From: Clostridia bacterium
Lineage (GTDB): Bacteria > Bacillota > Clostridia > Christensenellales > Aristaeellaceae
NCBI GenBank assembly: GCA_017469025.1
Contig: JAFUHD010000292.1
Coordinates: 1,539-65,538 of the forward strand
Direction of reading: 5' to 3'
Length of the DNA stretch: 64,000 nucleotides
A program made the position numbers and the translations under genes. Under the pieces are notes generated by a model. The model was given only the letters and a program-made list of their open reading frames with translations, did not search any database and had not been told where the DNA came from. Numbering within the stretch: the first letter of the stretch is position 1; each line of letters starts with the position of its first letter. Positions 4,501 through 57,699 of the stretch are shown here, one piece after another.

Positions 4501-4756
4501 ATTCCCTCCGAAATAAAATCGGACATTGTCCAATTATCATACATGATAATATAAGCTGCCAGATAGATTATATCAAATCAGGCAAAAAACTCAAGCCTTC
4601 ATCAAGGATTTGCAAGGAAAATGGTAAAATTTACGGAAATGCTGAGTTTTGCGAAAGCTGTTTTTTCCAACATACAGTATTAAGATCTGGACTGGAGACG
4701 AAAACCATGAAAAATGATCATATCACCTCAAGGCGATTGACACCCCAACAGGGGAG

Positions 4757-4837
4757 ATGACCTGGCACTATGTGCTGGTTTGTCAAATAATGACAACTGC
4801 AATTGATACGGTGCAGAAAACACAACTGTGCCATTAA
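4757..4837 (+). repeat. Copy A of the ~85-nt structured dispersed repeat (orphan copy, no gene downstream on this strand)
   Basis: ATGACCTGGCACTATGTGCTGGTTTGTCAAATAATGACAACTGCAATTGATACGGTGCAGAAAACACAACTGTGCCATTAA aligns along its length with the copies at 15461, 18106 (rc), 18192 (rc) and 57786. Confidence 0.8.
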
Positions 4838-4928
4838 TGGATCCTTAAAACATCTTTACTGCCATCAGTGAAAACAGAGATGATTGTAAGCCAGTCGCAC
4901 TGAAAGGCGACTGGCTTATTCTCCTGGA

Positions 4929-11268: not shown

Positions 11269-12462
11269 ATGGATAAAAAAAGAAACATGTACCGCTATGC
11301 TATGAGTGGCGGTACCGCGAACAATTTCTACATCAACGATGACAGAAAACAGAATCAGAAGAGAAGATCACGTTTTCTGAAAACGTTTGCTGTTATGGCA
11401 GTTGTTGCGGTTGTTCTGGTGTATGCTGGTTTTCAGATGTTTGGAGATAAGGGAAGATCCGGCGTTGGCAAGATTACCAGAATAGTGGCAACTATCTCCC
11501 AGAACATAAAACCATTCGGAGATAGAATTCTCTATTATGACGGCACGACAATTCACTGCGTATCCGCGAATGGCACGAATGAATGGAGTTATCAGATCGG
11601 GACAAATGCGGATTATGATGCAGCGGAGGACAAGATTGTTGCCTGGTCAGGAAATGACCTGTATATACTGAACAGCCGGGGGCGTCTGATCTATAACAAT
11701 AAAATGACAGACAGCATTCAGTTTGCAAGTGCAGGGAAAACCTATGCTGCGGCATTTATCGGAACAGCCAACACGGGTGTGGTTACAGTAATTGACGGGG
11801 AAGGACGTGTCATTGACAATATAACTGTTGATTCACAGACACTGCTGGATATCGGCTTTTTTGAAGCGTCATCGGCTTCAAATACCCAGACGGCTGAATA
11901 CATGTGGATGCTGGGACTTGATACAAACGGGACAGTTATATCCACTCAGCTTCAGACATTCCAGCCCGGCAGACTTTCAACAGGAAAGACTACGCTTGGT
12001 GATTACATTGCCTACAAGATATTTGACAGCAATGGGATTCTCAATATTGTAACGACGCGTGAAATTCTGCATTATACATTCCGTGCAGTTGAAAGCGAGT
12101 CATCGACGCTCATTTACGGCTATACACTGCAGGATGTTAGAAAGATCGGAAATACGGTTTATGAGCTGCTTATTCCTGCAAAAGAACAGAGCGGCGGTGC
12201 AACCATCAATAATGTTCGGCTGATGCACGGGAGTGTTGACCGTATGATCCATCTGCCTGGAAACTGTCTGGGTGCCACACTTGGCAGCCGCTGTATTTAT
12301 GGTTTTTCCGAAAATGCGATCTATGCATGCAGGTTTGATGAAACGTCATTTACAGCATATCCGATAGATATCAGTATCAGCAATGTACTTGGGATGATCA
12401 GTGACAACCGTGCGGTAGTCGCTGACGGCTCGTCTATCTATATTGTTGAACTGCCATCCTGA
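11269..12462 (+). CDS. Hypothetical membrane-anchored protein with a repeat-rich (beta-propeller-like) extracytoplasmic domain
   Basis: It has one N-terminal TM segment (FLKTFAVMAVVAVVLVYAGF), followed by about 330 aa rich in short beta-strand-like repeats. No catalytic motif was recognised and the start choice is uncertain. Confidence 0.55.
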   Translation: MDKKRNMYRYAMSGGTANNFYINDDRKQNQKRRSRFLKTFAVMAVVAVVLVYAGFQMFGDKGRSGVGKITRIVATISQNIKPFGDRILYYDGTTIHCVSANGTNEWSYQIGTNADYDAAEDKIVAWSGNDLYILNSRGRLIYNNKMTDSIQFASAGKTYAAAFIGTANTGVVTVIDGEGRVIDNITVDSQTLLDIGFFEASSASNTQTAEYMWMLGLDTNGTVISTQLQTFQPGRLSTGKTTLGDYIAYKIFDSNGILNIVTTREILHYTFRAVESESSTLIYGYTLQDVRKIGNTVYELLIPAKEQSGGATINNVRLMHGSVDRMIHLPGNCLGATLGSRCIYGFSENAIYACRFDETSFTAYPIDISISNVLGMISDNRAVVADGSSIYIVELPS

Positions 12463-13178
12463 TGGAAATAAAGGATTTTTTAATGAACATAATCGATATC
12501 ATTATACTGATAATTCTTGGCGTCAGTGTGCTTTACGGCATGCATCGCGGTTTTATCAGCAGTGTTCTTGGCATAGCAGCTGTGATCGTTTCTGTTGCAT
12601 TGTCATTGATGCTCAGCGGTCAGGTTGCAGACCAACTCCGGAAAAATGAGACACTGGTCAATACTCTGATGTATTATACTGATGCGAGCAGCAGGATTAA
12701 AAATATGGATCTTTCCGGTATTACAGCCGGCAGCGTGTCCTCATCTGTGCTTGACAATCTTCTGACACAGATAAATCTGCCTGAAAGTTTTAAGACGGTT
12801 TTTCTGGATGAAATCCGTTCAGCCGCTCTGTCAAAGACCCAGACGGTTGCATCTGTTCTCAGCCATACCATAGTGGATGTTTCCATTTCGATTCTCAGTT
12901 TTCTTATTACCTTCCTTGTTATATTTTTATTGGCAACTTTCCTTGTTCATATGATTGCCTATGTCTTTGAATTTCCTGTACTCAGGCATATGGATGCCCT
13001 TGTCGGCGGTATATTTGGAGGTATCCGGGGAATACTGATTGTTTTTATTCTGTTTGCCCTGGTACCGCTTGTCATGGCCGTTGTGCCCATTGATGAGGTT
13101 GGCCAGGTAATCAGTGAATCAAAACTGGCACCCATGTTTGACAGCAAAATTATTTTCATGATTCTGAATCGGATTTAG
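12462..13178 (+). CDS. cvpA: CvpA family membrane protein
   Basis: The N-terminus (IIDIIILIILGVSVLYGMHRGFISSVLGIAAVIVSVALS) and multi-TM layout are typical of CvpA. The ATG overlaps the previous stop (TGATG). Confidence 0.7.
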   Translation: MEIKDFLMNIIDIIILIILGVSVLYGMHRGFISSVLGIAAVIVSVALSLMLSGQVADQLRKNETLVNTLMYYTDASSRIKNMDLSGITAGSVSSSVLDNLLTQINLPESFKTVFLDEIRSAALSKTQTVASVLSHTIVDVSISILSFLITFLVIFLLATFLVHMIAYVFEFPVLRHMDALVGGIFGGIRGILIVFILFALVPLVMAVVPIDEVGQVISESKLAPMFDSKIIFMILNRI

Positions 13179-15361: not shown

Positions 15362-15543
15362 TTTTGTTGTCAAAAGCTTAAGCTGTACCATTAAGAGATG
15401 GCCTGCTGTGCGGTACCGGGCTGTCAGAAAATGATATGATGCTGAAAGCTTAAAGAGTAGATGGCCCAGCACTTCGTGCTGGTTTGTCAAATAATGACAT
15501 CTGCGATTGATACGGTGCCAAAAGCACGACTATGTCATTAAAA
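15362..15543 (+). repeat. Tandem array of the structured repeat upstream of kduI: two decayed copies plus full copy B (15461..15543)
   Basis: Copy B is ATGGCCCAGCACTTCGTGCTGGTTTGTCAAATAATGACATCTGCGATTGATACGGTGCCAAAAGCACGACTATGTCATTAAA, followed directly by AGGAGG and the kduI ATG. Segments 15398..15457 and 15362..15396 are internally deleted versions. Confidence 0.8.
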
Positions 15544-18094: not shown

Positions 18095-18105
18095 AGAGTT
18101 TCTCC

Positions 18106-18270
18106 TTTAATGACATAGTCGTGTTTTCGGCACCGTATCAATCGCAGTTGTCATGATTTGACAAACCAGCATGAAATGCTGGGCCATTTTCTTTAATGAC
18201 ATAGTCGTGCTTTCAGCATCGTATCAATAGCAGATGCCATTGTTGGACAGACCAGCATGAAGTGCTGGCC
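18106..18270 (-). repeat. Two tandem full copies (C 18106..18187, D 18192..18270) of the structured repeat in the 5' leader of the M55 peptidase gene
   Basis: The reverse complement of C is ATGGCCCAGCATTTCATGCTGGTTTGTCAAATCATGACAACTGCGATTGATACGGTGCCGAAAACACGACTATGTCATTAAA, followed by GGAGA and the ATG at 18094. D is a diverged copy directly upstream. Confidence 0.85.
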
Positions 18271-38193: not shown

Positions 38194-38340
38194 GATGTTT
38201 CCTGTCCTGTTTTAATAGGCAGTCATTTGCCTGATTTGCAGCTCCGGCACAGAAACTGCAGGTATGAAGCGTGCAGCACAGTGTGATAAATGATCCCCTG
38301 TATTTTTTATCAGTTCATGCCGTCAATGGGACGGTTTCAT

Positions 38341-39870
38341 TCAGAATTCATCGGGCAGTTCAAGCGTGCTCTCGAGTTCGTCAATCTTCTGAATGACATC
38401 AATCTGGCGCTCGTAGAAGAGCAGGGATTTGTTGTGGCGGAAATAAGCATCGCAGCCGTATTGCGAGATGAAGCGCGCAGTGCTTTCCATGGCAGTCAGT
38501 TCAGTGACAATGATCAGCATCTCCTGGCCTTCTGCATCGAAGGTTTTCTCGGCAAAGTCAAAGACATTGTTCAGTGATTTTTTAACTTCAGCTGCTTTTT
38601 TCTTGAGTGCTTTGCTGGCTGTGTCAAAATCATGCTTCATGGAATCGAGCTGGACACTGTCTGCGTCATCGTTCAGCCTGGCCATTGAAGCTTCGAGAAA
38701 CTGAATCAGGGAATAATAGGCATATTCCTGATCACCTGAAAGCATGTTGCCGCTCTGTCCCTGCTTCAGCCGGAGTTTTACGCCGTCAATTTCATTTGAA
38801 AGTGTCTGACGGGGATTGCTGTGACGGGTCAGACAGATTCGGCGCACATTTCCGAGGGACTTCTGGGCCATCTCCAGCATGGTGCGTTCGTTCATGACAG
38901 GTTTCACGACTCCGAGCACAGCATCCATGATGAGTGCGATGAGAGAGATACGTTCGTCAAAGCGTGCTGCTTTTGCCCGCTCAAGAATCTCTCCGGATAT
39001 CTTGCCGGACAGAATCTGGTCAACCTGATAGTCGCTCTGGTACTTTTTCCAGAGATCATAGTAGTTGGCAAACTGCTTGGCGGTCTTTGGATTCTGAATG
39101 TACTGGGCAATCAGAGTTTCTTTGACATCGATATTGTGCATCTCATAGAGACGGATCATGTCACTGAGATCTACCCAGCCGCGGGGCGTTACAAAATGTT
39201 TGCCATCAACAGTGGATTCGACCATGTAAAAATCGCCTTTGCGTATATCCAGATAACTCGTTACTGCCGGATGGACGCCCTGATCCATTGCCCAGGTATG
39301 CCAGACATCATAATTAGCCTCGACGTCAATGCGCTTGAGACGGTCCCATGTAACCATGTCAAATTCTCGGACAGACTGGTTGTATTCCGGTGGATTTCCA
39401 GCAGTAACAACAATCCAGCCATCCGGTACACGGTGCTGTCCGAAAACCTTGTACTGAAGAAACTGCAGCATGGCCGGTGCAAGTGTTTCGGAAACACAAT
39501 TGATTTCATCCAGAAAAAGAATGCCTTCATTTACACCGCTCTGCTCCATTTTCTCATAGACAGCAGAGATGATTTCACTCATGGTATATTCGCTGACCCG
39601 GTATGTTTCTCCCTGATAGGTCTTTTCGGTGATAAATGGGAGTCCGAGTGCACTCTGGCGGGTATGATGGGTCATGGAATAGGAAACCAGCGGAATGCCC
39701 ATTTCCTGAGCAATCTGTTCCATAATGGCTGTTTTGCCGATGCCTGGTGCGCCGATCAGGAAAATCGGGCGCTGGCGGTGGACAGGAATGACCGGACGGC
39801 CATACTCATCCTTTGTCCGGTAGGCCGTAATGGCATTGCTGATCTGCTGTTTTGCTTCAAAGATATTCAA
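38341..39870 (-). CDS. MoxR/CbbQ-like AAA+ ATPase with a long helical C-terminal extension
   Basis: TTG start 9 nt after GAGGAGG. Walker A is GAPGIGKT, Walker B is ILFLDEIN and the sensor-1-like motif is VVTAGNP. The roughly 250 C-terminal aa have no recognised motif. Confidence 0.8.
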   Translation of the reverse strand: MNIFEAKQQISNAITAYRTKDEYGRPVIPVHRQRPIFLIGAPGIGKTAIMEQIAQEMGIPLVSYSMTHHTRQSALGLPFITEKTYQGETYRVSEYTMSEIISAVYEKMEQSGVNEGILFLDEINCVSETLAPAMLQFLQYKVFGQHRVPDGWIVVTAGNPPEYNQSVREFDMVTWDRLKRIDVEANYDVWHTWAMDQGVHPAVTSYLDIRKGDFYMVESTVDGKHFVTPRGWVDLSDMIRLYEMHNIDVKETLIAQYIQNPKTAKQFANYYDLWKKYQSDYQVDQILSGKISGEILERAKAARFDERISLIALIMDAVLGVVKPVMNERTMLEMAQKSLGNVRRICLTRHSNPRQTLSNEIDGVKLRLKQGQSGNMLSGDQEYAYYSLIQFLEASMARLNDDADSVQLDSMKHDFDTASKALKKKAAEVKKSLNNVFDFAEKTFDAEGQEMLIIVTELTAMESTARFISQYGCDAYFRHNKSLLFYERQIDVIQKIDELESTLELPDEF

Positions 39871-39911
39871 AATCGATGTCCTCCTCGATGAATGCTCGGG
39901 TGAGCATGAAT

Positions 39912-41612
39912 CTATTCGATGTCGTCTGTTTCAAGAATAATCCGGATTGCCCAGGGCGGAACCAGCCGTTCGCCCTCAGCATCATTATCCAGGAACACAA
40001 ATGCCGTCTGATAGTCTGTCTGTGTGGACGGATAGATGCCAAATCCATCTGTAAAGTACAGAAGCCCTTTCAGATTGGTAAACTGATGCTGTGCGCGCAG
40101 CTGTTCCACATATTCAAATACAGGACGAAAATCTGTACCGCCGAATCCATGAAGTTTCATGCCTTTCAGATAATTCTGGAATTCGGTCTGTGTTGTGATG
40201 ACCGCATCCTCCTGTATTTCCGAGTCACACTGGATGATGTGCAGGTTGAAGCGTCGGTCATAGGTTTCCTCCTGCATCAGAATATTGTATGTCTTCTGAA
40301 GAAACATCTGGACGATTTGTCCCTGAACGGATCCGGAGGTATCTATGGCAATGACAAAGTCACGGATACGCTTGTCTTCTCGGTATTCAAGCGGTTCAAT
40401 CAGTGGCATATCCTGATACAGGTTCAGCCCGTATGTGTAATAGACATAGTCGAATTCGTCCGGAGACAGGTGCATGACCTCATGCATCGTTGCAAATTTT
40501 CTCAGAAATGAAGTATAGTCGTATCGCTCACGGTTCAGTGACCGCAATGCCTGTTCCATACCGCCGGCACTGATACCCTGCTGCCTGGCAAAGGTTTCAA
40601 GATCTGTCTGGACATGTTCGGAAATGTCCCGCCACATCTTTTCTAGTTCCTGCAGCTGGTTTTCATACAGGTCATTTTGAGATGCTGATGTATTGTTCTC
40701 ATTGCTGCTGTCCGGGCTGTCAGCATCAGGGCTCTGGGTGACGGATTCAGATCCGGCAGACTCAGCGGATTCATCCGAAAAGGAATCGGCATCCATCGTG
40801 CCGGACGTGTTCGCATCAGTTTCCTGTTCGGTCTCACTTTCATCTGACTGCGGATCATTGTCATCGTCGCCGCCATCTATGCCGCCAGATTCTCCGGAAT
40901 CAGTCTGATCGTCGTCTGTTTCATCTGTCTCATCAGGATTATCGGACTGGTTCTGAGGCATGGAACTGCGCTGAAACTGCCGGTTTGAATCGCGGGTATC
41001 ATCCGAAACAGGCTCTGGCTTCTGATACCACAACGTATGTTCGTCAACGTTGAAAAGATCGAGCAGTCTCTGCATTTCAACGGAATCGGGTGGATTTGAC
41101 TGAAAATACCGGTAGAGCTTTTCCGCAGTAATGTTTTTTATCTTTGTTTTAAAGTCATCTAGTATCCGTTCACGTTCCTGCTGACCGGGTGCATCCTGAA
41201 GCTGACGGATCTGAAGTTCACGGACCATGCTCTCCGCAGCCAGATCACAGGACAGGTTCCACAGCGTCTGATCGATGCTGTAGGGAATGAACATGTGCCG
41301 GAACAGGCTGTGCATGAGCGTATGTGCCACTGCCCTCAGCGCGAATGACTGGGACTGCCTGTAGCCGCGAAGCAGATAGAGCGGTTCATAGATCAGATGA
41401 CGTCCATCGGAGGCAAGCGGGTATTCTGAATTCGGCATGGGCTTCAGCTCAAAAAGCGCGCGGTCCAGAAAACGCAATTTGACGATAATCTGTGCTTTGG
41501 CAATGGACAGGATTTCTTCGGCAATTTCCTGAGATTTTTCAGTGATCTCCCGGACTTTGACATCTGCTTCCGCGGACGGCCTGTAGACGTCAGAGGGGTT
41601 CAGGATTTTCAT
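39912..41612 (-). CDS. DUF2201-type protein: degenerate metallopeptidase-like N-domain, acidic linker and VWA domain
   Basis: The start is set at ATG 41612 (AAAGGAA upstream). It has AHTLMHSLFRH ... WNLSCDLAAE (a DUF2201_N-like pattern with Thr in place of the HExxH Glu). A D/E/S-rich linker spans about 110 aa. The MIDAS motif DTSGS is followed by YFTDGFG. Confidence 0.75.
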   Translation of the reverse strand: MKILNPSDVYRPSAEADVKVREITEKSQEIAEEILSIAKAQIIVKLRFLDRALFELKPMPNSEYPLASDGRHLIYEPLYLLRGYRQSQSFALRAVAHTLMHSLFRHMFIPYSIDQTLWNLSCDLAAESMVRELQIRQLQDAPGQQERERILDDFKTKIKNITAEKLYRYFQSNPPDSVEMQRLLDLFNVDEHTLWYQKPEPVSDDTRDSNRQFQRSSMPQNQSDNPDETDETDDDQTDSGESGGIDGGDDDNDPQSDESETEQETDANTSGTMDADSFSDESAESAGSESVTQSPDADSPDSSNENNTSASQNDLYENQLQELEKMWRDISEHVQTDLETFARQQGISAGGMEQALRSLNRERYDYTSFLRKFATMHEVMHLSPDEFDYVYYTYGLNLYQDMPLIEPLEYREDKRIRDFVIAIDTSGSVQGQIVQMFLQKTYNILMQEETYDRRFNLHIIQCDSEIQEDAVITTQTEFQNYLKGMKLHGFGGTDFRPVFEYVEQLRAQHQFTNLKGLLYFTDGFGIYPSTQTDYQTAFVFLDNDAEGERLVPPWAIRIILETDDIE

Positions 41613-41640
41613 ATAAAATTCCTTTCGCAATGGGTGGGAT

Positions 41641-44600
41641 CTATTCGTGAGCTGACTGGAGCAGCAGCGCTGTCCATTCGGTTTTATTGTGGCGGGTTGT
41701 TATATCAACCAGATTCCTGACATTCCGCTTGTGAATCAGACCGGTTTTACACAGTTTCCTGAGCATAAAATAGTCATCTGTTTCGCAGAGATATTCAAGG
41801 CAGCGTTTCATGGAACGTGAAAGATACAGCCGCAGGCGTGCTGCAACCTGTTCGTCCAGAAGATAAGGGTTCACAATTCTGATCATTGTCATCCTGAGCT
41901 TGTCATCGCCGCTTTTGATTTCATCGAAAGCTTCATCATGGCGCCGTATGAGCCATGGAAGATCCAGCTTTATTTTGCCGGATATGTAATCCTCAAGTGA
42001 TCTGCCGTCAAAAAGCCGTGGTGAATTGTTTGAAAGATCTGCAGCATGTCTGAGTGCGGCTCCGGTCAGCCTGCAGATTTCACGATCATGTCCGTCGGTT
42101 ATGGAAATCCATGTTGCATTGTAGAAAAGTCGTGCAATACTAGCCTGCGTTTCCGGCAGAACAACTGTGTCAATGGTATTTGGTGAAATTTTAACATTTA
42201 AAACCGTCGCCTTGATAATGAGACGGTCCAGGTGCCCTCCTAAAAAGATATCTCCGAGCATCCGTAACGGATGATTCAGGACGAGTTCATGCCGGTGCTG
42301 CATTGTGTAGGAGTAATCGCAGAGAATTTCAACATCTTCCATTGCGGGAGTGGCATCACATTCCTGCGGACAGAAGAGCAGGCGTTTTTTGTGATCATAA
42401 ACCTGTCCACCGACAGACATGAACACCGGATTGTCTTTATCAACGATGATCTGCTTTTTTGCAAGCGTATACAATCCGTTGATTGCATTCAAGAGTGTTT
42501 TTGGAATCCGGAGCGTATCAGGCGTTTCCGTATCAGGCCAACGGTATGTGGCTGTAACCGGAAGGTTTCCAATATGATCCGGAAGGCAGGCATCCCGTTC
42601 AGGTCCAGTATAGCCATGAGACACATATCCGTATTTGGATACGGTTCTATCCGTAAAAGTATATTGAGTGGGAAGCATTTTAAACTTCCGGACAAGTTCC
42701 TGCTCCTTTTCCGGGAGCGTCAGATCAACAAAAACGCAGTGATTCGAACGGGCAAAATTCAGTGCGGCAGAACCTGTAAAGCCGAATATTGTCAGTGGGT
42801 CTGAAAAGGAACTTTTGACGCTGGTCGCAGTTGAAATAAACGAAATCGAAATGGGAAGGTACAATTCCTTCAAATTCGGACAGTAACGGAAAACACTGGG
42901 GTCAATTTTTTTGGTGCCTGCACGGACAGACAGCCTTTTTTCCTGTCTGGCAGATGGAAGGATCAGTTTCAGGGTAGAAGTAGTCTGTTCATAAAGCACG
43001 CCGTTTTCGATCGTGAAATATGGATTTTCCGGATCAATTTCGATGTCCGTCAGCTTTTCCAGTGCATCATAATACGGTATCTCAAGTGTTTTAAGGTTAC
43101 GGCCTATGCGCATTTTTTTCCGTCCGGGGTCACTGGGACAGGAAAGAGAAACGACAGGTTTTCCGTAAATGGTATCCGGTATGACTATCGTATCTGATTC
43201 GTCATGTTTAAGAATATCCTTAATCTCTATGGAGTCAGGTGTTTCGCGGAATGAGAAATATTCCCGGAAATCAACAGACGATGAAGCGGTTTCACGATAG
43301 TCTTTGAATGCATATCCGCCGGCAGCGGCAAAAGCTTCTGCGTTGCTTCCTGGTATTCCATAAATCAGACGCTGGTTTCCGGACAGAAGCGGAACCGGTG
43401 TGCAGCCAAAGAGATCAGGATGAATGGTTTCAACATGTTCCGGGATTATCAGTTCACCAAGCAGCGCACAGCCTGTAAAAGCACCTTTTTCCAAAGTGCG
43501 CATACTCTCCGGAAGATGAACGGAATGAAGATGGCTGCAGCCTGCAAAAAAATGCTTTGGAAGGCAGGTCATTCCATCCGGAAGGATAACGGTCTGAAGT
43601 TCGGTGTGTTTTGCAAAAAGACCGTTTTCAAAGACAAGCTCCGGGTGCTTCAGCAGAAGAGACTCTAGGTTCAGATCGGATTGACTTTTATAATTATACC
43701 GTACAACGTGGTTATCGTTTACAGTAAACAGCATGATAGGATCTGAAATCGGGGTTGAGTCAGAAACGGTCTGTTTTGTGCGTTGTGCGGCGGACAATTT
43801 CAGGGAATGGGCGTATCCATTGGAAATTGCCCAGGACGCAGCAGCGGATCCCTTTTTACAATTTATAGAAAAGAGTAAGTCTAATTTGCATTTTCCAACA
43901 GACTGAACAGATGCGGGCAGAATCAGCGTTAATACAGAGAGGTTGTGTGCCCAGTCATCTTCAAGAATTTCACATCCCTCCTGTATCTCCAGTCTGTATA
44001 TGTACGCTTCAGAAAAGGCCTGACTTTCAATGCGCCTGACAGAAGGAGAAACGATAACGGAAGCACATTCAAGATCTGAAAATGTCTTGCTGCCGATACA
44101 GGTGACGGAATCGGGAACCTCAACTTTATTCAGATCGAACGGACAGATATAAAGCGTTTTGAGTCCGTCAGAGGTTTTTTCAACGAAGAAACTGCCGGCA
44201 AATCCATACCTGGGATTCGATAGGGAAATTGTGAAACCCGGAAAGTAATCACCGGTGTAACTGTGATATGTGAACCCCATAAATCCCGGAGATTTTATGT
44301 TCGTGATGGATTCAGAAATGATAATCTGACCGATTTTTACGCGGGAAAAATCCGTTGGATTGATGCTGGTGATCCCGTCTTCAAACTGTAACCTGCCTAT
44401 TCTTTCGCATTCATCAAAGGCAGATGCAGCAATTTCACTGACAAAAGCAGGAATGGTAAGTACCCTTGGATTCTTTTTTCTGCATTTCAGGAGAATGATC
44501 TTATCGGATGTTTTCCTGTAAACAAAAGAATTGTCTTCCCAGATTCCGTTTGCTTTTGATTCAGCTTTTTTTCTTTTTTCCTGTTCGATCAGTTCCTGAT

Positions 44601-45447
44601 CTTTGTACAGAATGATTTTCTGCAGGAAAGCACAGCCATGAAAAGGCGAGAGCAGCTGGTTTATCCATGTTTTTTTTACAGAAACAACAGTCGTGCTGGC
44701 AGGAAGATCCTCCTCTGAGACAAAACCAACAGAGAGGAATGCCGTCCGTGACATAGTGATTCTCTGAAGAGATGCGCAATAGGTGAACGTGAATGGTGGT
44801 ATTCTTTCGACCGCTTCAGGCAGAATGATTTCCTGTAGGGCGGAGCAGTCTTTAAAAACCGAATCTTCCAGAATGGATACGGAATCCGGAATAGTGATTT
44901 TGCGCAGCTGGTGACATCCACAGAAGGCACCGGCTGCAAGTTTTGTAACGTTGTCTGGAAGTTCTATGGCTTCAATTCCATCTACGTTTGCATACAATGG
45001 AAGGAAAGTCGGACTGTCCAGCAATTCTGCGGGAAAGTCTATTTTCCGGATGGAACATCCTTTAAGTACATTTTGTCCGAGAAATTTAAGTGATGCGGGC
45101 CAGTGGATTTCCGTGAGATGTGTACAGCCGGAGAATGCTTCATCTTTGATTGTCGAAACGGAATCGGGAATTGAAATGCCTGTCAGGGACTCGCATTGTT
45201 TAAAAGCCTTTTTACCGATGGTATGCAGTCTGGCAGGAAGGATGATCTCTTTGAGAAGATGCAGATCCTCGAAACATCTGTCAGGTATCGAGACTACAGA
45301 TTCAGGCAGAATGATCTTTAGTATAGCCGAGCAATATCTGAATGCCTTTGGACTGATGCGGACGATTTCATCCGGTACAGTGATAACGGTTTCTCCGATG
45401 TCGGGATCGATGTCTATAAGTGTTTTTTTCACACAGGTATATTTCAT
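41641..45447 (-). CDS. Large BspA-type leucine-rich-repeat (LRR_5-like) protein, no signal peptide, C-terminal helical module
   Basis: Many repeats of the form F..C..L..I.IP.SV..I. are present, for example ISPKAFRYCSAILKIILPESVVSIPDRCFEDLHLLKEIILPARLHTIGKKAFKQCESLTGISIPDSV. There is no N-terminal hydrophobic segment. ATG 45447 is preferred (AGGGG upstream). Confidence 0.8.
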   Translation of the reverse strand: MKYTCVKKTLIDIDPDIGETVITVPDEIVRISPKAFRYCSAILKIILPESVVSIPDRCFEDLHLLKEIILPARLHTIGKKAFKQCESLTGISIPDSVSTIKDEAFSGCTHLTEIHWPASLKFLGQNVLKGCSIRKIDFPAELLDSPTFLPLYANVDGIEAIELPDNVTKLAAGAFCGCHQLRKITIPDSVSILEDSVFKDCSALQEIILPEAVERIPPFTFTYCASLQRITMSRTAFLSVGFVSEEDLPASTTVVSVKKTWINQLLSPFHGCAFLQKIILYKDQELIEQEKRKKAESKANGIWEDNSFVYRKTSDKIILLKCRKKNPRVLTIPAFVSEIAASAFDECERIGRLQFEDGITSINPTDFSRVKIGQIIISESITNIKSPGFMGFTYHSYTGDYFPGFTISLSNPRYGFAGSFFVEKTSDGLKTLYICPFDLNKVEVPDSVTCIGSKTFSDLECASVIVSPSVRRIESQAFSEAYIYRLEIQEGCEILEDDWAHNLSVLTLILPASVQSVGKCKLDLLFSINCKKGSAAASWAISNGYAHSLKLSAAQRTKQTVSDSTPISDPIMLFTVNDNHVVRYNYKSQSDLNLESLLLKHPELVFENGLFAKHTELQTVILPDGMTCLPKHFFAGCSHLHSVHLPESMRTLEKGAFTGCALLGELIIPEHVETIHPDLFGCTPVPLLSGNQRLIYGIPGSNAEAFAAAGGYAFKDYRETASSSVDFREYFSFRETPDSIEIKDILKHDESDTIVIPDTIYGKPVVSLSCPSDPGRKKMRIGRNLKTLEIPYYDALEKLTDIEIDPENPYFTIENGVLYEQTTSTLKLILPSARQEKRLSVRAGTKKIDPSVFRYCPNLKELYLPISISFISTATSVKSSFSDPLTIFGFTGSAALNFARSNHCVFVDLTLPEKEQELVRKFKMLPTQYTFTDRTVSKYGYVSHGYTGPERDACLPDHIGNLPVTATYRWPDTETPDTLRIPKTLLNAINGLYTLAKKQIIVDKDNPVFMSVGGQVYDHKKRLLFCPQECDATPAMEDVEILCDYSYTMQHRHELVLNHPLRMLGDIFLGGHLDRLIIKATVLNVKISPNTIDTVVLPETQASIARLFYNATWISITDGHDREICRLTGAALRHAADLSNNSPRLFDGRSLEDYISGKIKLDLPWLIRRHDEAFDEIKSGDDKLRMTMIRIVNPYLLDEQVAARLRLYLSRSMKRCLEYLCETDDYFMLRKLCKTGLIHKRNVRNLVDITTRHNKTEWTALLLQSAHE

Positions 45448-45564
45448 GGACACACCCCTGTAAACTTGATTGTATCAAGAATATATGATAAAATCAATAA
45501 AATAAAATATACATCATTAAACACAAATTTATTTACATGATATTGATAGAAAGACAACTAAAAT

Positions 45565-47226
45565 ATGAGAAATAGTATGAAAGATTTTGTACTGGAAAGG
45601 GATAACTCTTGGCGCAACAGCGAGTATTACCGGTTGAAAAAGTATACCGGCAACAGTCCGTCGGTTGTGATTCCGGAAAATATCAGATACATTGATCAAT
45701 CTGCTTTTCAGGAAAAAAAGGTAGTAATGCTGACGTTTCGGAATTGGCTTGGAATCTTTGAATTGGAAGGGACATTTCCGACAGTAGAAAGTCTGAGATT
45801 TGAGAATGTCAGGCAGCCACGTCTTTCAATTGAGAGTTTGCTGAAGCTTTTTCCAAATATTCGTACAATTGAGTATCCCTCATCGGAAGAACTTACCATT
45901 TGTTATGACAGGAAGGTAAATGAACCCATTGTGTTTCGTCTGCCCTGGGTGTTTATAAAGCGGATATCCGTTCAGAAATATGGTACATCCAGCGTACCTG
46001 AATTAGGTTCGGTAATGATTTTTGCACCGTTTCTCTCTCCGGGAAAGGCAGCACCGGAAATCCGTTGTCAGGTCATAGAGACATTTCTTACGCATCCTGA
46101 GTGGTATGATGACAAAGCGACGGCGATGTATCAAATGTGGATCCGAAAAAATGGTATCAGCTTTCTGCCGTTATGCATGAAAAACGGGTACATGAACCTG
46201 CTTAACAAACTGGTATTTGAACAGAATATACCTTTCACGTCTGCGGCATTTGATGCGATCATTCAGGCAGCTGAGGATCAGAAGGATACGGCACTTAAAG
46301 CAGCCTTCATCGGCGCCAAAGAGAAACATCATGATCTGGCAAAGATCAACCAGAGAATGGAAACACTGGCATCGAATGATCTGGAAAATCCGCTGAGACC
46401 GCATGCGATGCAGCGTCTGTGGTCCTGGTCAAATCAGGAGGATGGGACACTCTGTATTAAAAAGCTGAAATATGATACTGAAGCTCCGATGATGGAAAGC
46501 AGCATTCTGATTCCATCGGAAATTGCCGGGAAAAAAGTTGCTGAAGTTACAGGAGCGGTGTTCAGGGAGTCACAGGCAGAGGAAATTATTTTTCCGGAAT
46601 CCATTGAATGGATTCGTGGAAAGGTGCTTGAAGGGAACCGGGCCATTCAGCGTGTCAGATTTCTGGGACCAGTCAGAATCATTCCGGAAAGTGCTTTTTC
46701 CGGCTGTGAGAATATCAAATCGATTACCTTTTGTGATAAAGAGCAATGGATTGGACGGCCTGATGATCAGCTTTTATCGGAATTCCAGCAGGAATATCCG
46801 GAAAAGCTGGACAGCATTGTGATTCTGAGAAAAGCGTTTGAATACTGCTACAGGATCGAAGGCGTGCGGCTTAACCGTGCTGTTCTTGAGGACTCAGCCT
46901 TTTACAATTCAGGACTCAGAAGGATCCATCTGAGAGATGTGATGGCAATTCCAAAAAGGTGTTTTGAATCCTGTACGATGCTGGAACTTGCAGACATCCA
47001 AGGGACAGTTGTAATTGGGCCAATGGCATTTTACGGGTGTTCGGATCTTCAGGAACTGCATGTTTCCGACAGTCTCACTTCTGTCGGGACGCAGGCATTT
47101 GCTTACTGTAAAAAACTGAGCAGAATTTATCTGCACAATGTCAGCCGGCCGGGACAGATCAGGCGCCTGTTTCAGAATAATGAAAATTACAGAAAAATTG
47201 AATTCATCCAGACAAATGAACCATAA
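45565..47226 (+). CDS. BspA-type LRR (LRR_5-like) protein paralog, no signal peptide
   Basis: C-terminal LRR_5 repeats (IPESAFSGCENIKSITF, LEDSAFYNSGLRRIHL, IPKRCFESCTMLELADI, IGPMAFYGCSDLQELHV, VGTQAFAYCKKLSRIYL). The central helical module is shared with the 55903..57699 product. Confidence 0.8.
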   Translation: MRNSMKDFVLERDNSWRNSEYYRLKKYTGNSPSVVIPENIRYIDQSAFQEKKVVMLTFRNWLGIFELEGTFPTVESLRFENVRQPRLSIESLLKLFPNIRTIEYPSSEELTICYDRKVNEPIVFRLPWVFIKRISVQKYGTSSVPELGSVMIFAPFLSPGKAAPEIRCQVIETFLTHPEWYDDKATAMYQMWIRKNGISFLPLCMKNGYMNLLNKLVFEQNIPFTSAAFDAIIQAAEDQKDTALKAAFIGAKEKHHDLAKINQRMETLASNDLENPLRPHAMQRLWSWSNQEDGTLCIKKLKYDTEAPMMESSILIPSEIAGKKVAEVTGAVFRESQAEEIIFPESIEWIRGKVLEGNRAIQRVRFLGPVRIIPESAFSGCENIKSITFCDKEQWIGRPDDQLLSEFQQEYPEKLDSIVILRKAFEYCYRIEGVRLNRAVLEDSAFYNSGLRRIHLRDVMAIPKRCFESCTMLELADIQGTVVIGPMAFYGCSDLQELHVSDSLTSVGTQAFAYCKKLSRIYLHNVSRPGQIRRLFQNNENYRKIEFIQTNEP

Positions 47227-54891: not shown

Positions 54892-55770
54892 TCATTTTTC
54901 AAGAAACTGACTGAGAATGGAAAACAGTTTTTCAACGGAGATGGGCTTTTCGGTAAAAGCATTCATGCCTGCATCCATGGCAGCCTGCCGGTCTTTATCG
55001 CTGACACTGGCCGTCATGGCAACAATGGGAATGGAGGCTTTCTGCGGATGATTCATCTGACGGATGTGGCGTGTGGCTTCCACACCATCCATGTTCGGCA
55101 TCAGAATGTCCATCAAAATTAGATCGTAGTGACCGGGCTCGGCCTGTCTGAGTTTCTCTACACATGCATTACCATCTTCGGCAAATTCCACGCTGGCACC
55201 TGTCTGACGCAGAACCGCCTCGGCAATTTCACGGTTCAGAGCCATATCTTCCGCAACAAGAATTCGTTTTCCAGTGAAATTGCAGGAGACAAATCGGCTT
55301 TGAATGGTCTGTTCTTCAAGCCGTCGACGGAGTTCGTTCGGATCTGCCGGTGTACTGCTGTCTGTAATCTCCAGAAGCCGGTTAAATGTATTGAGCAGAT
55401 AGTCTGCTGAGATCCGGATGCTGCGCAGGTAATGATCGAGCATCGGCTCTCTTTCGGTGTGTGTCTCAATGAGATCAGTACATCCCAGAATGATGTGAAT
55501 GGGCGTTCTGACATCATGGGTGATCTGAAACAGGTGCATCAGACGGGAGGGATGTCTGGCATCTGTAAAGTGATTCAGGAGATCTTCAACCGGGATGCCA
55601 AACAGATCTGCGATCTTTGTGAACAGCGTGATATCTGGAAATGAAATGTCCCGTTCCCATTTGGAAACAGCCTTGTCTGTAACATGCAGTTTTTCAGCAA
55701 GTGCTGCCTGTGTCCAGTTTTTCTGAACCCTCAGAGAACGGATATACTGTCCAAGTGTGGACGAATTCAA
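54892..55770 (-). CDS. Hybrid signalling protein: XRE-type HTH + HisKA (H-box) + receiver domain, without an HATPase domain
   Basis: The HTH is LGQYIRSLRVQKNWTQAALAEKLHVTDKAVSKWERD. The H-box is ITHDVRTPIHIILGCTDLI. The REC domain has ILVAEDM, DLILMDILMPNMDG, AMTAS and EKP. No N/G1/F/G2 boxes are present. Confidence 0.8.
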   Translation of the reverse strand: MNSSTLGQYIRSLRVQKNWTQAALAEKLHVTDKAVSKWERDISFPDITLFTKIADLFGIPVEDLLNHFTDARHPSRLMHLFQITHDVRTPIHIILGCTDLIETHTEREPMLDHYLRSIRISADYLLNTFNRLLEITDSSTPADPNELRRRLEEQTIQSRFVSCNFTGKRILVAEDMALNREIAEAVLRQTGASVEFAEDGNACVEKLRQAEPGHYDLILMDILMPNMDGVEATRHIRQMNHPQKASIPIVAMTASVSDKDRQAAMDAGMNAFTEKPISVEKLFSILSQFLEK

Positions 55771-55902: not shown

Positions 55903-57699
55903 ATGAAAAGGATAAAGCAGAATGATGATCAGCAGATGATGAAGCTTTATGAATCGTGGACATATCGGACAGTAAACGGTCATCTCTATGCAGATAAGTA
56001 CACTGGAAGTGATCTGAATGTCAGGGTTCCCAAGTTCTATGATATTGCCAGGGATGCATTTGAAGGATTGAACATAGAAAGTCTGACACTGCTCAGGGCA
56101 GAAAAACTGCACCATCTCTGGGATGCTCCGATGCCGGGCTGTGAACATGTACATCATCTGACACTCTGTTACAGTGGAGATGGGGCAGCGTTCCTGCATC
56201 TGTGCGGCTGGACTGAGCGCCTGCCAGAACTTGAGGAGATTGAGATATCCTGCCAGGTACCCCATCAGCTGATTCTCTGGGAGGGTGTGCCAAATCTTTC
56301 ACATGATGTAACAGTCCGTGATGAAAAGTGCAACAAATTCAATGTTTATGGGCATATGATTACGGAGGTTACCCTTCCAACGGACCATTTTTTCCTGTCC
56401 ATTCCGCTGCTGCCGTCAAAGGTGCCGGATCCTGCAATCCGTGCAGCACAGCTGCTGACGCTGCTTCGGAAACCAGAACTTGTTCCACCGGACCTGCTGG
56501 AGGCGTATCAGGCGTGTCTCAACAGAAACGGTGTACGCTGGATTCCGGTTTTTATGGAGAATGGTGTTGCTGACAGTGTACTGCTTCCGATTTTTCGCGA
56601 AATACAGCCATTGAAACCTGAGAAATATGAGACGCTCCTGGAAGCAGCCCAGACAGATGGGAACGTGGCAATGGCTGCGGCAATTGTCGAGGAACAGAAC
56701 AAATATGTCGACCGTGAGAAAGAACAGAGAAAGCGGGAACGGCAGGAAAGCTATGATTTGGACCATCCTTTTTCAGCACGCAACATGAAGAAAGAATGGG
56801 ACTGGATGATTCTGCCGGACCAGACAGTATGCCTGACCAAATGCCGGGTTAAGGATACGGGCACGGTTTATGTGCCTCCGGAGATAGCCGGCAAACCTGT
56901 AACATGTCTTGGAGAAAAACTGTTCTATAATTGTCCGGCTGATGAAATCGTCATTCCTGAAACTGTAAAACGAATTGAAAGTAACTGCTTTTTAAATGCC
57001 AGAATATCATCCGTAACAATACCTGAATCTGTTGTCTGGATAGGAAGAGGCACTTTTGAATCATGCAGACATCTTGCTGCTTTTTCTGTTCCAAAGCAGA
57101 TCACGTCGCTTCCAGCTTATATGTTTTATAACGCTTCTTTGCAGAAAATTGAACTGCATGACGGAATTAAACGAATTGGAGCGGGTGCTTTTACCGGATG
57201 CAGTCAGCTCAAGGAGATTGTATTGCCGGAGCATATTGATACGCTGCCGGATCATGTGTTTCAGGGCTCCGGCCTGACTTCAATAACGATTCCAAAGAAG
57301 GTTCAAAGAATAGAAGGATTTGCTTTCGACAGGTGTGAAAATCTGGTCTCCGTTGTCTTTGACAGGGATTCCGAACTGGATTACATAGGACATGACTGTT
57401 TCAGCTTCAGCGGATTGAAAGCGTTTGAAGTTCCAGAAAGTGTAAGTTTGATTGAAAACTATGTGTTCTCATTCTGTGGGCATCTTGAACACTTTGAGTG
57501 TTTCAGGAAAACGAAACTTCGAAAAAATGCCCTGAGCGATACACGTCTTAAACCGGTGGAGCAGGGTGAAAAGCTGATATGGGAGGCAAAAAAACCGAAA
57601 TGGATGAATATGGTTGATTGGAAAATGATTCGCGCTGGCAGTCTGAACTTTCAGCACAGAAGAGAAGCAGGGAAGGAAGCACTGAAATCCGTGCATTAA
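55903..57699 (+). CDS. BspA-type LRR (LRR_5-like) protein paralog, no signal peptide
   Basis: The start is set at ATG 55903, because the longer ORF would overlap the divergent gene. C-terminal LRR_5 repeats are present (IESNCFLNARISSVTIPESV, IGRGTFESCRHLAAFSVP, IGAGAFTGCSQLKEIVLPEHI, IEGFAFDRCENLVSVVF). Confidence 0.8.
   Translation: MKRIKQNDDQQMMKLYESWTYRTVNGHLYADKYTGSDLNVRVPKFYDIARDAFEGLNIESLTLLRAEKLHHLWDAPMPGCEHVHHLTLCYSGDGAAFLHLCGWTERLPELEEIEISCQVPHQLILWEGVPNLSHDVTVRDEKCNKFNVYGHMITEVTLPTDHFFLSIPLLPSKVPDPAIRAAQLLTLLRKPELVPPDLLEAYQACLNRNGVRWIPVFMENGVADSVLLPIFREIQPLKPEKYETLLEAAQTDGNVAMAAAIVEEQNKYVDREKEQRKRERQESYDLDHPFSARNMKKEWDWMILPDQTVCLTKCRVKDTGTVYVPPEIAGKPVTCLGEKLFYNCPADEIVIPETVKRIESNCFLNARISSVTIPESVVWIGRGTFESCRHLAAFSVPKQITSLPAYMFYNASLQKIELHDGIKRIGAGAFTGCSQLKEIVLPEHIDTLPDHVFQGSGLTSITIPKKVQRIEGFAFDRCENLVSVVFDRDSELDYIGHDCFSFSGLKAFEVPESVSLIENYVFSFCGHLEHFECFRKTKLRKNALSDTRLKPVEQGEKLIWEAKKPKWMNMVDWKMIRAGSLNFQHRREAGKEALKSVH

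Follow-up and report, generated by a model that had tools for sequence, protein, structure and literature searches.

The closest concept to the locus described here is that of the vWA-MoxR ternary conflict systems. These combine a MoxR ATPase and a vWA protein with a third component; the described types carry VMAP, iSTAND(2), FtsH or TERNS3, or combine a propeller-bearing vWA protein with a third protein containing transmembrane (TM), TPR and propeller regions (PMC7159879, PMC8195603). The systems are concentrated in multicellular bacteria (PMC7159879). The coupling of MoxR and VWA proteins has also been described: one VWA protein plugs the pore of the ATPase hexamer and bridges it to the target, as in NorQ/NorD (PMC9976466). 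We analyzed a four-gene cassette in a 64,000-nucleotide stretch of DNA (hereafter, the window) from a Clostridia bacterium (contig JAFUHD010000292.1). The cassette encodes a MoxR-class AAA+ ATPase (AAA+), a VWA protein (VWA), and two leucine-rich repeat (LRR) proteins, LRR1 and LRR2, the gene of the latter being transcribed divergently from the other three. Partner genes such as these LRR genes are tightly linked to homologous AAA+/VWA pairs, and one helical module recurs among the proteins that they encode. We tentatively read the cassette as one cytoplasmic system with a constant MoxR-VWA core and interchangeable, module-tagged binding proteins. Full-text searches of the open-access literature found no published description of the cassette, which appears to be a widespread LRR-type variant, so far undescribed, of the MoxR-VWA multi-component theme.

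The cassette resembles the vWA-MoxR ternary systems in having, beside a MoxR and vWA core, a third component made up of superstructure-forming repeats with fast-evolving regions. Their beta-propeller type likewise has no conventional effector, and many of the AAA+ homologues analyzed here carry a precomputed match to PF20030 (bpMoxR). However, none of the defining features of those systems was found. In the cassette, this place is taken by a cytoplasmic LRR_5, ankyrin, DUF6273, or DUF4132 protein with a helical module, whereas in those systems the third component is VMAP, iSTAND, FtsH, TERNS3, or a TPR-plus-propeller protein with a TM region; LRRs are mentioned as a component in neither PMC7159879 nor PMC8195603. 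The VWA domain is C-terminal here and is preceded only by DUF2201_N, with no C-terminal effector or propeller. The P-loop reads GAPGIGKT and differs from the GxxxTAKS variant of the propeller and FtsH types, and the bpMoxR match of the window ATPase is sub-threshold (21.1 bits against a 27-bit cut-off). The hosts also differ, being gut and rumen Clostridia and Eggerthellaceae rather than multicellular taxa.

An AAA_5-class ATPase gene beside a gene for a VWA protein with a metal ion-dependent adhesion site (MIDAS) is also found in CbbQ-CbbO, NorQ-NorD, RavA-ViaA, and CoxD-CoxE, and the coupling of an ATPase ring to a VWA plug (PMC9976466) is a probable further likeness. Unlike these pairs, the cassette is accompanied by genes for variable repeat proteins and not by client genes for Rubisco, nitric oxide reductase, LdcI, fumarate reductase (Frd), or carbon monoxide dehydrogenase. 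No family-specific NCBIfam or Pfam match to any of these pairs was obtained, and the DUF2201_N zincin-like domain further sets the VWA protein apart from theirs. In the Escherichia coli cluster yehH/yehI (DUF4132)-yehL (MoxR)-yehM-yehP (VWA)-yehQ (SWIM) (L092), MoxR and VWA genes stand beside genes for large DUF4132 proteins, and DUF4132 proteins are also partners in the present cassettes, one of them fused to LRR_5. By contrast, YehM and a SWIM protein belong to the Yeh cluster, which has no LRR. Homology to YehL, YehP, and YehI was considered and rejected, the best E values of AAA+, VWA, and the module in hmmsearch --max against 10 sequences being 0.018-0.5.

Three more distant comparisons can be made. 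Midasin/Rea1 is an AAA_5 motor whose MIDAS domain grips an adaptor domain on its substrates; it differs in that its six AAA modules lie in one giant eukaryotic polypeptide, which serves ribosome biogenesis. The LRR_5 repeats and their fold are shared with BspA-type proteins (T. pallidum TpLRR, 6mlx; F. prausnitzii, 4gt6), whereas the proteins studied here have no signal peptide or anchor, carry an added helical module, and are encoded in an apparent operon with the ATPase and VWA genes. STAND/NLR receptors couple variable repeat sensors to a conserved P-loop NTPase, which would be a resemblance of design only; in the cassette, the putative sensor and the NTPase are separate proteins, the NTPase is of the MoxR and not the STAND class, and there is no effector or death-fold domain.

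Linkage of partner genes to the AAA+/VWA pair

One genome per GTDB species was scanned for relatives of the window ATPase. At least 593 relatives were found, and the best 80 were taken with 10-kb flanks; the set of loci analyzed comprised 81 non-redundant ones. The sampled hosts were Oscillospiraceae, Acutalibacteraceae, Lachnospiraceae, Ruminococcus, Roseburia, Erysipelotrichaceae, Mogibacterium, Eggerthella/Paraeggerthella, and Coriobacteriaceae. Wherever the contig extends far enough, a VWA gene was adjacent to or near the AAA+ gene in essentially every locus. In 56 of the 81 loci, one or more same-strand LRR genes directly adjoined the VWA or AAA+ gene or stood between the two, and such genes occupied the slots directly upstream of VWA (18), between VWA and AAA+ (27), and directly downstream of AAA+ (22). 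Same-strand LRR genes accounted for 79 of the 195 genes (40%) flanking or inside the pair, compared with 6 of the 437 (1.4%) located more than three positions away (Fisher odds ratio, 49; p = 7e-39). Among the 43 loci having at least 3 kb on both flanks, 38 had a partner within two genes, and two of the five apparent negatives, both Eggerthellaceae, carry a divergent module gene that had been dropped from the greedy gene set. Four more divergent pairs on IMG/VR contigs (42-56% identity) all have a neighbor with both module and LRR. The preliminary description of the locus had proposed a functional connection between the LRR genes and the AAA+/VWA pair, with the LRR protein as a possible client or sensor, and had named LRR enrichment at homologous pairs as the point to examine. 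Since strong enrichment was found, this link is strongly supported; moreover, the divergent LRR2 gene is kept in the syntenic locus L091, and its product shares the module of LRR1. The reverse search gave a consistent picture: the module-bearing protein P0164, found through similarity to LRR2, is encoded between VWA and AAA genes, and three LRR_5 proteins devoid of the module, all encoded on long contigs, lack VWA/AAA neighbors.

The number of partners per locus ranged from 0 to about 9, with about nine partner genes in a row in L020. Besides LRR proteins, the same slots hold DUF6273, ankyrin, and DUF4132 proteins, a fusion of LRR_5 with DUF4132, and a few proteins without a Pfam match. A hydropathy scan found no signal peptide, TM segment, or anchor in 114 of the 121 partner open reading frames (ORFs). 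A clear signal peptide was present in only three; all three lack the module, and none adjoins the pair.

Other genes within these loci were also recorded. The LRR_5-DUF4132 fusion gene (L097, 8516-10819) is followed by a gene for an uncharacterized 419-amino-acid protein and by a UvrD-type helicase gene. Small DUF4760 genes lie between LRR and AAA+ in two unrelated loci (L012, 1902-2351; L020, 7751-8281). In L093, a Macro-domain gene (11885-12670) is directly downstream of AAA+ in a VWA-LRR-AAA cassette. In L004-L007, an array of small ORFs (78-108 amino acids) with repeated 60-nt segments is found downstream of a partner-less pair at ~9-14 kb of the locus coordinates; the array adjoins a PDDEXK_2 gene, and in L004 a TIR-domain gene is located 5 kb upstream.

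The helical module and the conservation gradient

The non-LRR C-terminus of LRR1 and residues 131-300 of LRR2 were used as jackhmmer queries. One helical segment of ~100-110 amino acids was found to be common to about 100 partner ORFs, including the non-LRR partners and the divergent Eggerthellaceae partners. It is present on LRR_5, DUF6273, ankyrin, and DUF4132 partners, in 88 of the 109 LRR ORFs of the loci, and in the window on LRR1, LRR2, and a third LRR protein, LRR3. All ORFs with the module in the loci lie within two genes of the pair or farther away in the same neighborhood, the latter mostly in a run of partner genes. These sequence comparisons indicate that the common denominator of the partners is an ankyrin-like helical module and not the LRR itself.

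The module has no Pfam family, with only weak ankyrin matches for single members, and its profile gave weak whole-sequence matches to ankyrin-repeat chains in the PDB. The fold predicted by AlphaFold2 consists of five short helices and one long helix, followed by a beta hairpin leading into the LRR (predicted local distance difference test [pLDDT] score, 83-91 inside LRR2 and 81 overall for the module alone). Searched with this model, Foldseek gave nothing in the PDB at E <= 0.001; the top hits were TPR/PPR-like, with E values of 0.5-3. A module profile built from window and database sequences only matched 1014 representative clusters (E <= 1e-3) among 1.84 billion proteins, which is a lower bound counted at 50% identity. 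In the matches sampled, LRR_5 was present in 73 of 74 and ankyrin repeats in 10. A homologue search with the short module profile gave only 9 fragments. A homotypic relation between the module and the C-terminus of AAA+ was rejected, as the hhalign probability was 0.3% and the jackhmmer match was spurious.

The syntenic relative L091 contains the same four genes in the same arrangement beside the same GH2, GH88, and apiosidase genes. Identity between the window and L091 was 85% for AAA+ (96-97% over the first 200 amino acids), 65% for VWA, 45% for LRR1, and 42% for LRR2, with 68-80% for the flanking enzymes. The module was the best-conserved part of both LRR proteins (58-68% and 60%). Among tandem paralogues, the module was best conserved in three of four arrays, and in L026 and L030 its identity was 62%, compared with ~43% elsewhere. 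A relative with 76% AAA+ identity has the order LRR (1275 amino acids)-VWA-AAA in an unrelated context, with an LRR identity of 35%. This pattern points to a frozen core and a fast-diversifying periphery of variable copy number that keeps a constant tag.

As to how the periphery diversifies, partner turnover at the strain level was rejected, as contigs with one identical AAA+ protein show an identical partner set. Diversification of the partners by a diversity-generating retroelement (DGR) was likewise rejected; when all loci and the window were compared with themselves by BLAST, no template repeat/variable repeat (TR/VR) pair with adenine-specific mismatches appeared. A phage origin was also discarded, as the only phage sequences with close relatives were short unannotated fecal "Bacteriophage sp." fragments and 4 of 2.9 million IMG/VR contigs. 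The accessory origin that had been suggested for the LRR genes stands only in part: the dip in GC content at third codon positions (GC3) is real and contexts differ between genomes, but in L091 the genes are syntenic with the same glycosidase genes. AAA+ copies from Firmicutes, Eggerthellaceae, and Coriobacteriaceae show a similar identity of ~52%, and this suggests horizontal spread of the cassette between Firmicutes and Actinobacteria.

Organization of the locus and its proteins

The coordinates of the cassette and its features are listed in Table 1.

Table 1. Positions of the cassette genes, protein features, and related genes (window coordinates unless a locus is named)
Feature	Position	Strand	Remarks
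AAA+	38341-39870	-	509 amino acids; TTG start 8 nt after a GAGGAGG Shine-Dalgarno sequence
AAA+ Walker A	39730-39753	-	GAPGIGKT (amino acid 40)
AAA+ Walker B	39499-39522	-	ILFLDEIN (amino acid 117)
VWA	39912-41612	-	566 amino acids; ATG start
DUF2201_N zincin-like domain	~41013-41486	-	Pfam
H-x3-H-C-x3-H motif	41295-41324	-	Alignment of VWA homologues
Acidic low-complexity linker of VWA	40674-41015	-	Amino acids 200-313; lineage-specific
VWA domain	39915-40370	-	Amino acids 415-566; C-terminal in the protein
MIDAS DTSGS	40329-40343	-	Amino acid 424; alignment
GGTD Thr	40128-40142	-	MIDAS-associated; alignment
YFTDG Asp	40044-40058	-	MIDAS-associated; alignment
LRR1	41641-45447	-	1268 amino acids
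Helical module of LRR1	~41644-41970	-	C-terminal; profile match
Divergent spacer	45448-45564	.	117 nt; GC 0.23; AT-rich; promoter-like hexamers facing both ways
LRR2	45565-47226	+	553 amino acids
Helical module of LRR2	46054-46386	+	Amino acids 164-274; module hidden Markov model (HMM), 1e-36
LRR3	55903-57699	+	Listed ORF start 55684; 55903 is the estimated true start
Helical module of LRR3	~56404-56835	+	Module HMM
SIR2_2/AbiH-like gene	L022 9090-9995		
SIR2_2/AbiH-like gene	L038 5010-5939		
SIR2_2/AbiH-like genes	L097-L102 (e.g., L097 6099-7004)		

The ORFs and strands given in the preliminary description were all reproduced by an ORF check, and the gaps of 28 nt between LRR1 and VWA and of 41 nt between VWA and AAA+ are exact; the divergent spacer is longer than the 110 nt reported. 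The TTG start of AAA+ and its Shine-Dalgarno sequence hold, the start being supported by the alignment of 16 homologues from residue 1. For VWA, an alternative in-frame TTG at 41630 was judged less likely than the ATG. The Walker A, Walker B, and MIDAS motifs are all present as described, and a Pfam profile search matched AAA_5, DUF2201_N with DUF2201, and LRR_5/LRR_8, with no other domain. The greater AT-richness of the LRR genes, earlier judged by eye, was borne out by a GC3 of 0.44-0.46, compared with 0.55-0.58 in AAA+, VWA, and the flanking genes. A terminator scan detected no site of note between the three minus-strand genes, and the cassette genes show tight, operon-like packing. Promoter and terminator predictions, including the hexamers in the spacer, did not exceed the shuffled background. 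An invertible promoter in the spacer was considered and rejected because only weak AT-rich inverted repeats, none convincing, were present.

The cassette sits among ordinary chromosomal genes: two ABC-exporter genes flank it on one side, and GH2, GH88, and an apiosidase-like gene lie on the opposite side. The 147 nt between the AAA+ stop codon and the same-strand ABC-exporter gene pair (38194-38340) contain no terminator-like site, so that read-through into the exporter genes is possible. An Rfam scan of the window identified one tRNA only. Elsewhere in the window, a ~85-nt repeat with 80-90% identity occurs at 4755-4841 (+), 15459-15541 (+), and 18103-18257 (-, two tandem copies) and contains ...GCTGGTTTGTCAAATAATGACA...ATTGATACGGTGC...; it matched no Rfam family at the gathering threshold and could be a regulatory RNA or an element like the repetitive extragenic palindromic (REP) type.

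AAA+ matched AAA_5 with an E value of 2.7e-10 (40.8 bits against a 22-bit cut-off). It is composed of an AAA_5 core at about residues 30-180 and a helical C-terminal region of ~200 amino acids. In the alignment of homologues, both Walker motifs are invariant and there are long invariant stretches. Its domain score, Walker motifs, and adjoining VWA gene assign the protein to the MoxR class (AAA_5); neither Pfam nor NCBIfam supported the label "CbbQ-like" used earlier beyond that general class. The homologues form more than 8000 clusters, the best 120 being full-length and having at least 58% identity; they are from metagenome-assembled genomes (MAGs) of Clostridia and are named only "AAA family" or "MoxR family ATPase." The best sequence match in the PDB, midasin, was weak (E value, 6e-9) and covered ~45-60 residues of the P-loop region.

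The VWA protein matched DUF2201_N (9.6e-11; 42.2 bits against a cut-off of 23.2) and DUF2201 (1.2e-13; 51.7 bits against 26.4). An alignment of 74 homologues shows conservation of the MIDAS residues DxSGS, GGTD, and FTDG. In the zincin-like domain, the three His are invariant in 74 of 74, and the motif reads H-[IMVTLS]-x-x-H-C-x3-H; the position of the catalytic Glu is occupied by a hydrophobic or small residue and by Glu in none of the 74. The Cys and a downstream W-x-x-x-C-D-x-A-x-E block are also strongly conserved. This domain probably still binds metal, and it is unlikely to be a conventional peptidase because the catalytic Glu is absent throughout. The D/E/S/T-rich linker is found in the window, L091, and L001; most homologues have a short one or none. 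Sequence comparison related the VWA protein to no solved structure, and the hydropathy scan detected no signal-peptide-like or TM-like segment in it.

LRR1 and LRR2 matched LRR_5 (2e-85 and 5e-30, respectively) and otherwise only LRR_8. LRR1 is a BspA-type LRR_5 protein with five to six LRR blocks. It is colinear with orthologues of 1269 and 1275 amino acids (45% and 35% identity), the C-terminus being the best-conserved part. LRR2 is composed, in order, of a degenerate LRR-like beta region (residues 1-153), the helical module, a beta hairpin, and LRR_5 repeats (residues 313-550). Its AlphaFold2 model (pLDDT, 81.7) matched the BspA-type LRR structures 4gt6 and 6mlx in Foldseek, and only two full-length homologues were found among 5.8 billion proteins. 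In agreement with the earlier statement that LRR1 has no signal peptide or TM segment, the hydropathy scan found no such segment in LRR1 or LRR2; by this crude test, both are cytoplasmic.

LRR3 is not linked to the cassette, being 8.4 kb away. It has the same module and LRR_5 architecture as LRR2 (module HMM, 1e-16; LRR HMM, 1e-44), and its GC3 of 0.456 is like those of LRR1 and LRR2. LRR3 is a probable further partner of the same AAA+/VWA core. LRR proteins tagged with the module thus also occur dispersed in the genome. The product of the gene divergent from LRR3 (54892-55770, -) reads like a regulator with helix-turn-helix and receiver domains.

Possible functions of the cassette

In the adaptor/sensor reading, which we hold tentatively, the constant core would be a MoxR-class AAA+ ring together with a VWA protein that has an intact MIDAS and a zincin-like domain that has lost its catalytic Glu. 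The variable part would consist of one to several binding proteins, mostly BspA-type LRR_5 and in some cases DUF6273, ankyrin, or DUF4132 proteins. The helical module would dock these onto the VWA/ATPase core, and their fast-evolving repeats would bind target molecules. The ring would hydrolyze ATP to remodel, release, or signal the bound complex, with coupling through the VWA domain as in NorQ/NorD. The LRR proteins would act as adaptors or sensors and not as substrates, and the biological role would most likely be the surveillance of variable, possibly invader-derived, proteins.

Several observations weigh against this reading. No invariant acidic residue that could act as a MIDAS ligand is present in the module, and a relative with 81% AAA+ identity has the pair with no partner nearby. 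The 81 loci represent only the best-matching part of the family and lie for the most part on MAG contigs, of which many are truncated, and the signal-peptide test was a crude hydropathy heuristic rather than SignalP. With regard to a defense function, PADLOC 2.0 and the NCBIfam antiphage models gave no convincing match for the four window proteins. AAA+ had only P-loop-level matches (IetA, 3.5e-6 over ~55 amino acids), VWA had one marginal match (E value, 0.008), and the LRR proteins had none. There is no consistent effector domain across the loci, and most loci, including the window, have no effector. The contexts examined are ordinary metabolic genes and not defense islands, and conservation as strong as that of the ATPase is unusual in a conflict gene.

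It is possible, though doubtful in our view, that the module-tagged LRR, ankyrin, and DUF6273 proteins are instead substrates, with the AAA+/VWA pair as their dedicated chaperone or maturase, as CbbQO is for Rubisco and NorQD for cNOR, and the module as a recognition tag. The linkage and the shared module fit this client model as well as they fit the adaptor/sensor reading. All MoxR-VWA pairs characterized so far serve a specific client whose gene lies nearby (PMC9976466). CbbQO, NorQD, and RavA-ViaA are established examples. The strictly conserved metal site in the N-terminal domain of VWA could serve metal delivery. The partners, however, are simple solenoids with no cofactor or metal center to mature. 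Partner proteins that number from none to about nine per locus and differ in fold (LRR, ankyrin, DUF6273, and DUF4132) are also hard to reconcile with a client role, and their fast divergence outside the module is typical of binding surfaces and not of chaperone clients.

A sharpened version of the adaptor/sensor reading, which we consider rather unlikely as it stands, is a dedicated anti-phage or conflict system resembling a split NLR. In gut and rumen Firmicutes and some Actinobacteria, arrays of LRR, ankyrin, and DUF6273 sensors for invader proteins would dock through the module on a MoxR-VWA hub and together constitute an immune receptor; the hub would disable the bound complex or trigger an effector such as an operon-embedded SIR2-like NADase. 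Genes of the SIR2_2/AbiH-like type (301-309 amino acids) are found inside or directly after the cassette in three lineages. The copy in L097 overlaps the ATPase start codon by 4 nt, that in L038 is weakly similar to the SIR2 domains of ThsA and LmuA, and their products may be occasional effectors. DUF6273 is a known binding-fold target of DGRs (PMC10743442). The operon-embedded SIR2_2/AbiH-like genes and the DUF6273 partners are hints of a conflict role. The hypervariable partner arrays with their steep conservation gradient, the DUF4760 genes inserted in L012 and L020, the cross-phylum distribution at similar identity, and the conceptual parallel with the vWA-MoxR ternary systems (PMC7159879) are in line with them. 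By contrast, the cassette is not phage-borne and shows no DGR signature, the inserted genes of other loci gave no convincing PADLOC or NCBIfam system match, and the lack of antiphage matches, effectors, and visible defense islands, together with the near-identical first 200 residues of the ATPase in relatives, also tells against such a role.

An active protease is improbable. In this explanation, the zincin-like domain would use unconventional catalytic residues to cleave or activate module-tagged proteins fed to it by the ATPase. Pfam classes DUF2201_N as a putative metallopeptidase domain, and the conserved His, Cys, and W-x-x-x-C-D-x-A-x-E residues would be compatible with this. However, the general-base Glu of HExxH is missing from every homologue aligned, and no conserved motif resembling a cleavage site was seen in the partners. 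Least probable of all is that the LRR proteins are BspA-type surface adhesins exported non-classically with the aid of AAA+/VWA, or that the adjacency is functionally meaningless: LRR_5 proteins are usually annotated as cell-surface proteins, and structural matches to such proteins and a weak HupY/LrrG adhesin match were obtained, but nearly all partners are devoid of signal peptide, TM segment, and anchor, the cassettes include no membrane component, those LRR proteins of the loci that do have signal peptides are module-less and do not adjoin the pair, and the statistics exclude chance adjacency.

Few AAA+ modules with unassigned clients are as widespread as MoxR-VWA pairs, and since the partner set is defined genomically, the MoxR-VWA family described here is directly testable. 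Among gut and rumen anaerobes, at least several hundred species-representative genomes carry the AAA+/VWA pair. It is the undescribed module, in at least 1014 clusters, rather than the LRR that predicts membership in the cassette, and a large class of Clostridia proteins annotated as "leucine-rich repeat" or "cell surface" would be reassigned to a cytoplasmic, ATPase-linked role. To our knowledge, eukaryotic LRR immune receptors have few bacterial counterparts. If the partners are sensors, the cassette would represent LRR-based bacterial recognition coupled to an NTPase, in parallel with those receptors; if the immune reading is true, it would represent bacterial immunity with free-standing LRR proteins as the recognition layer.

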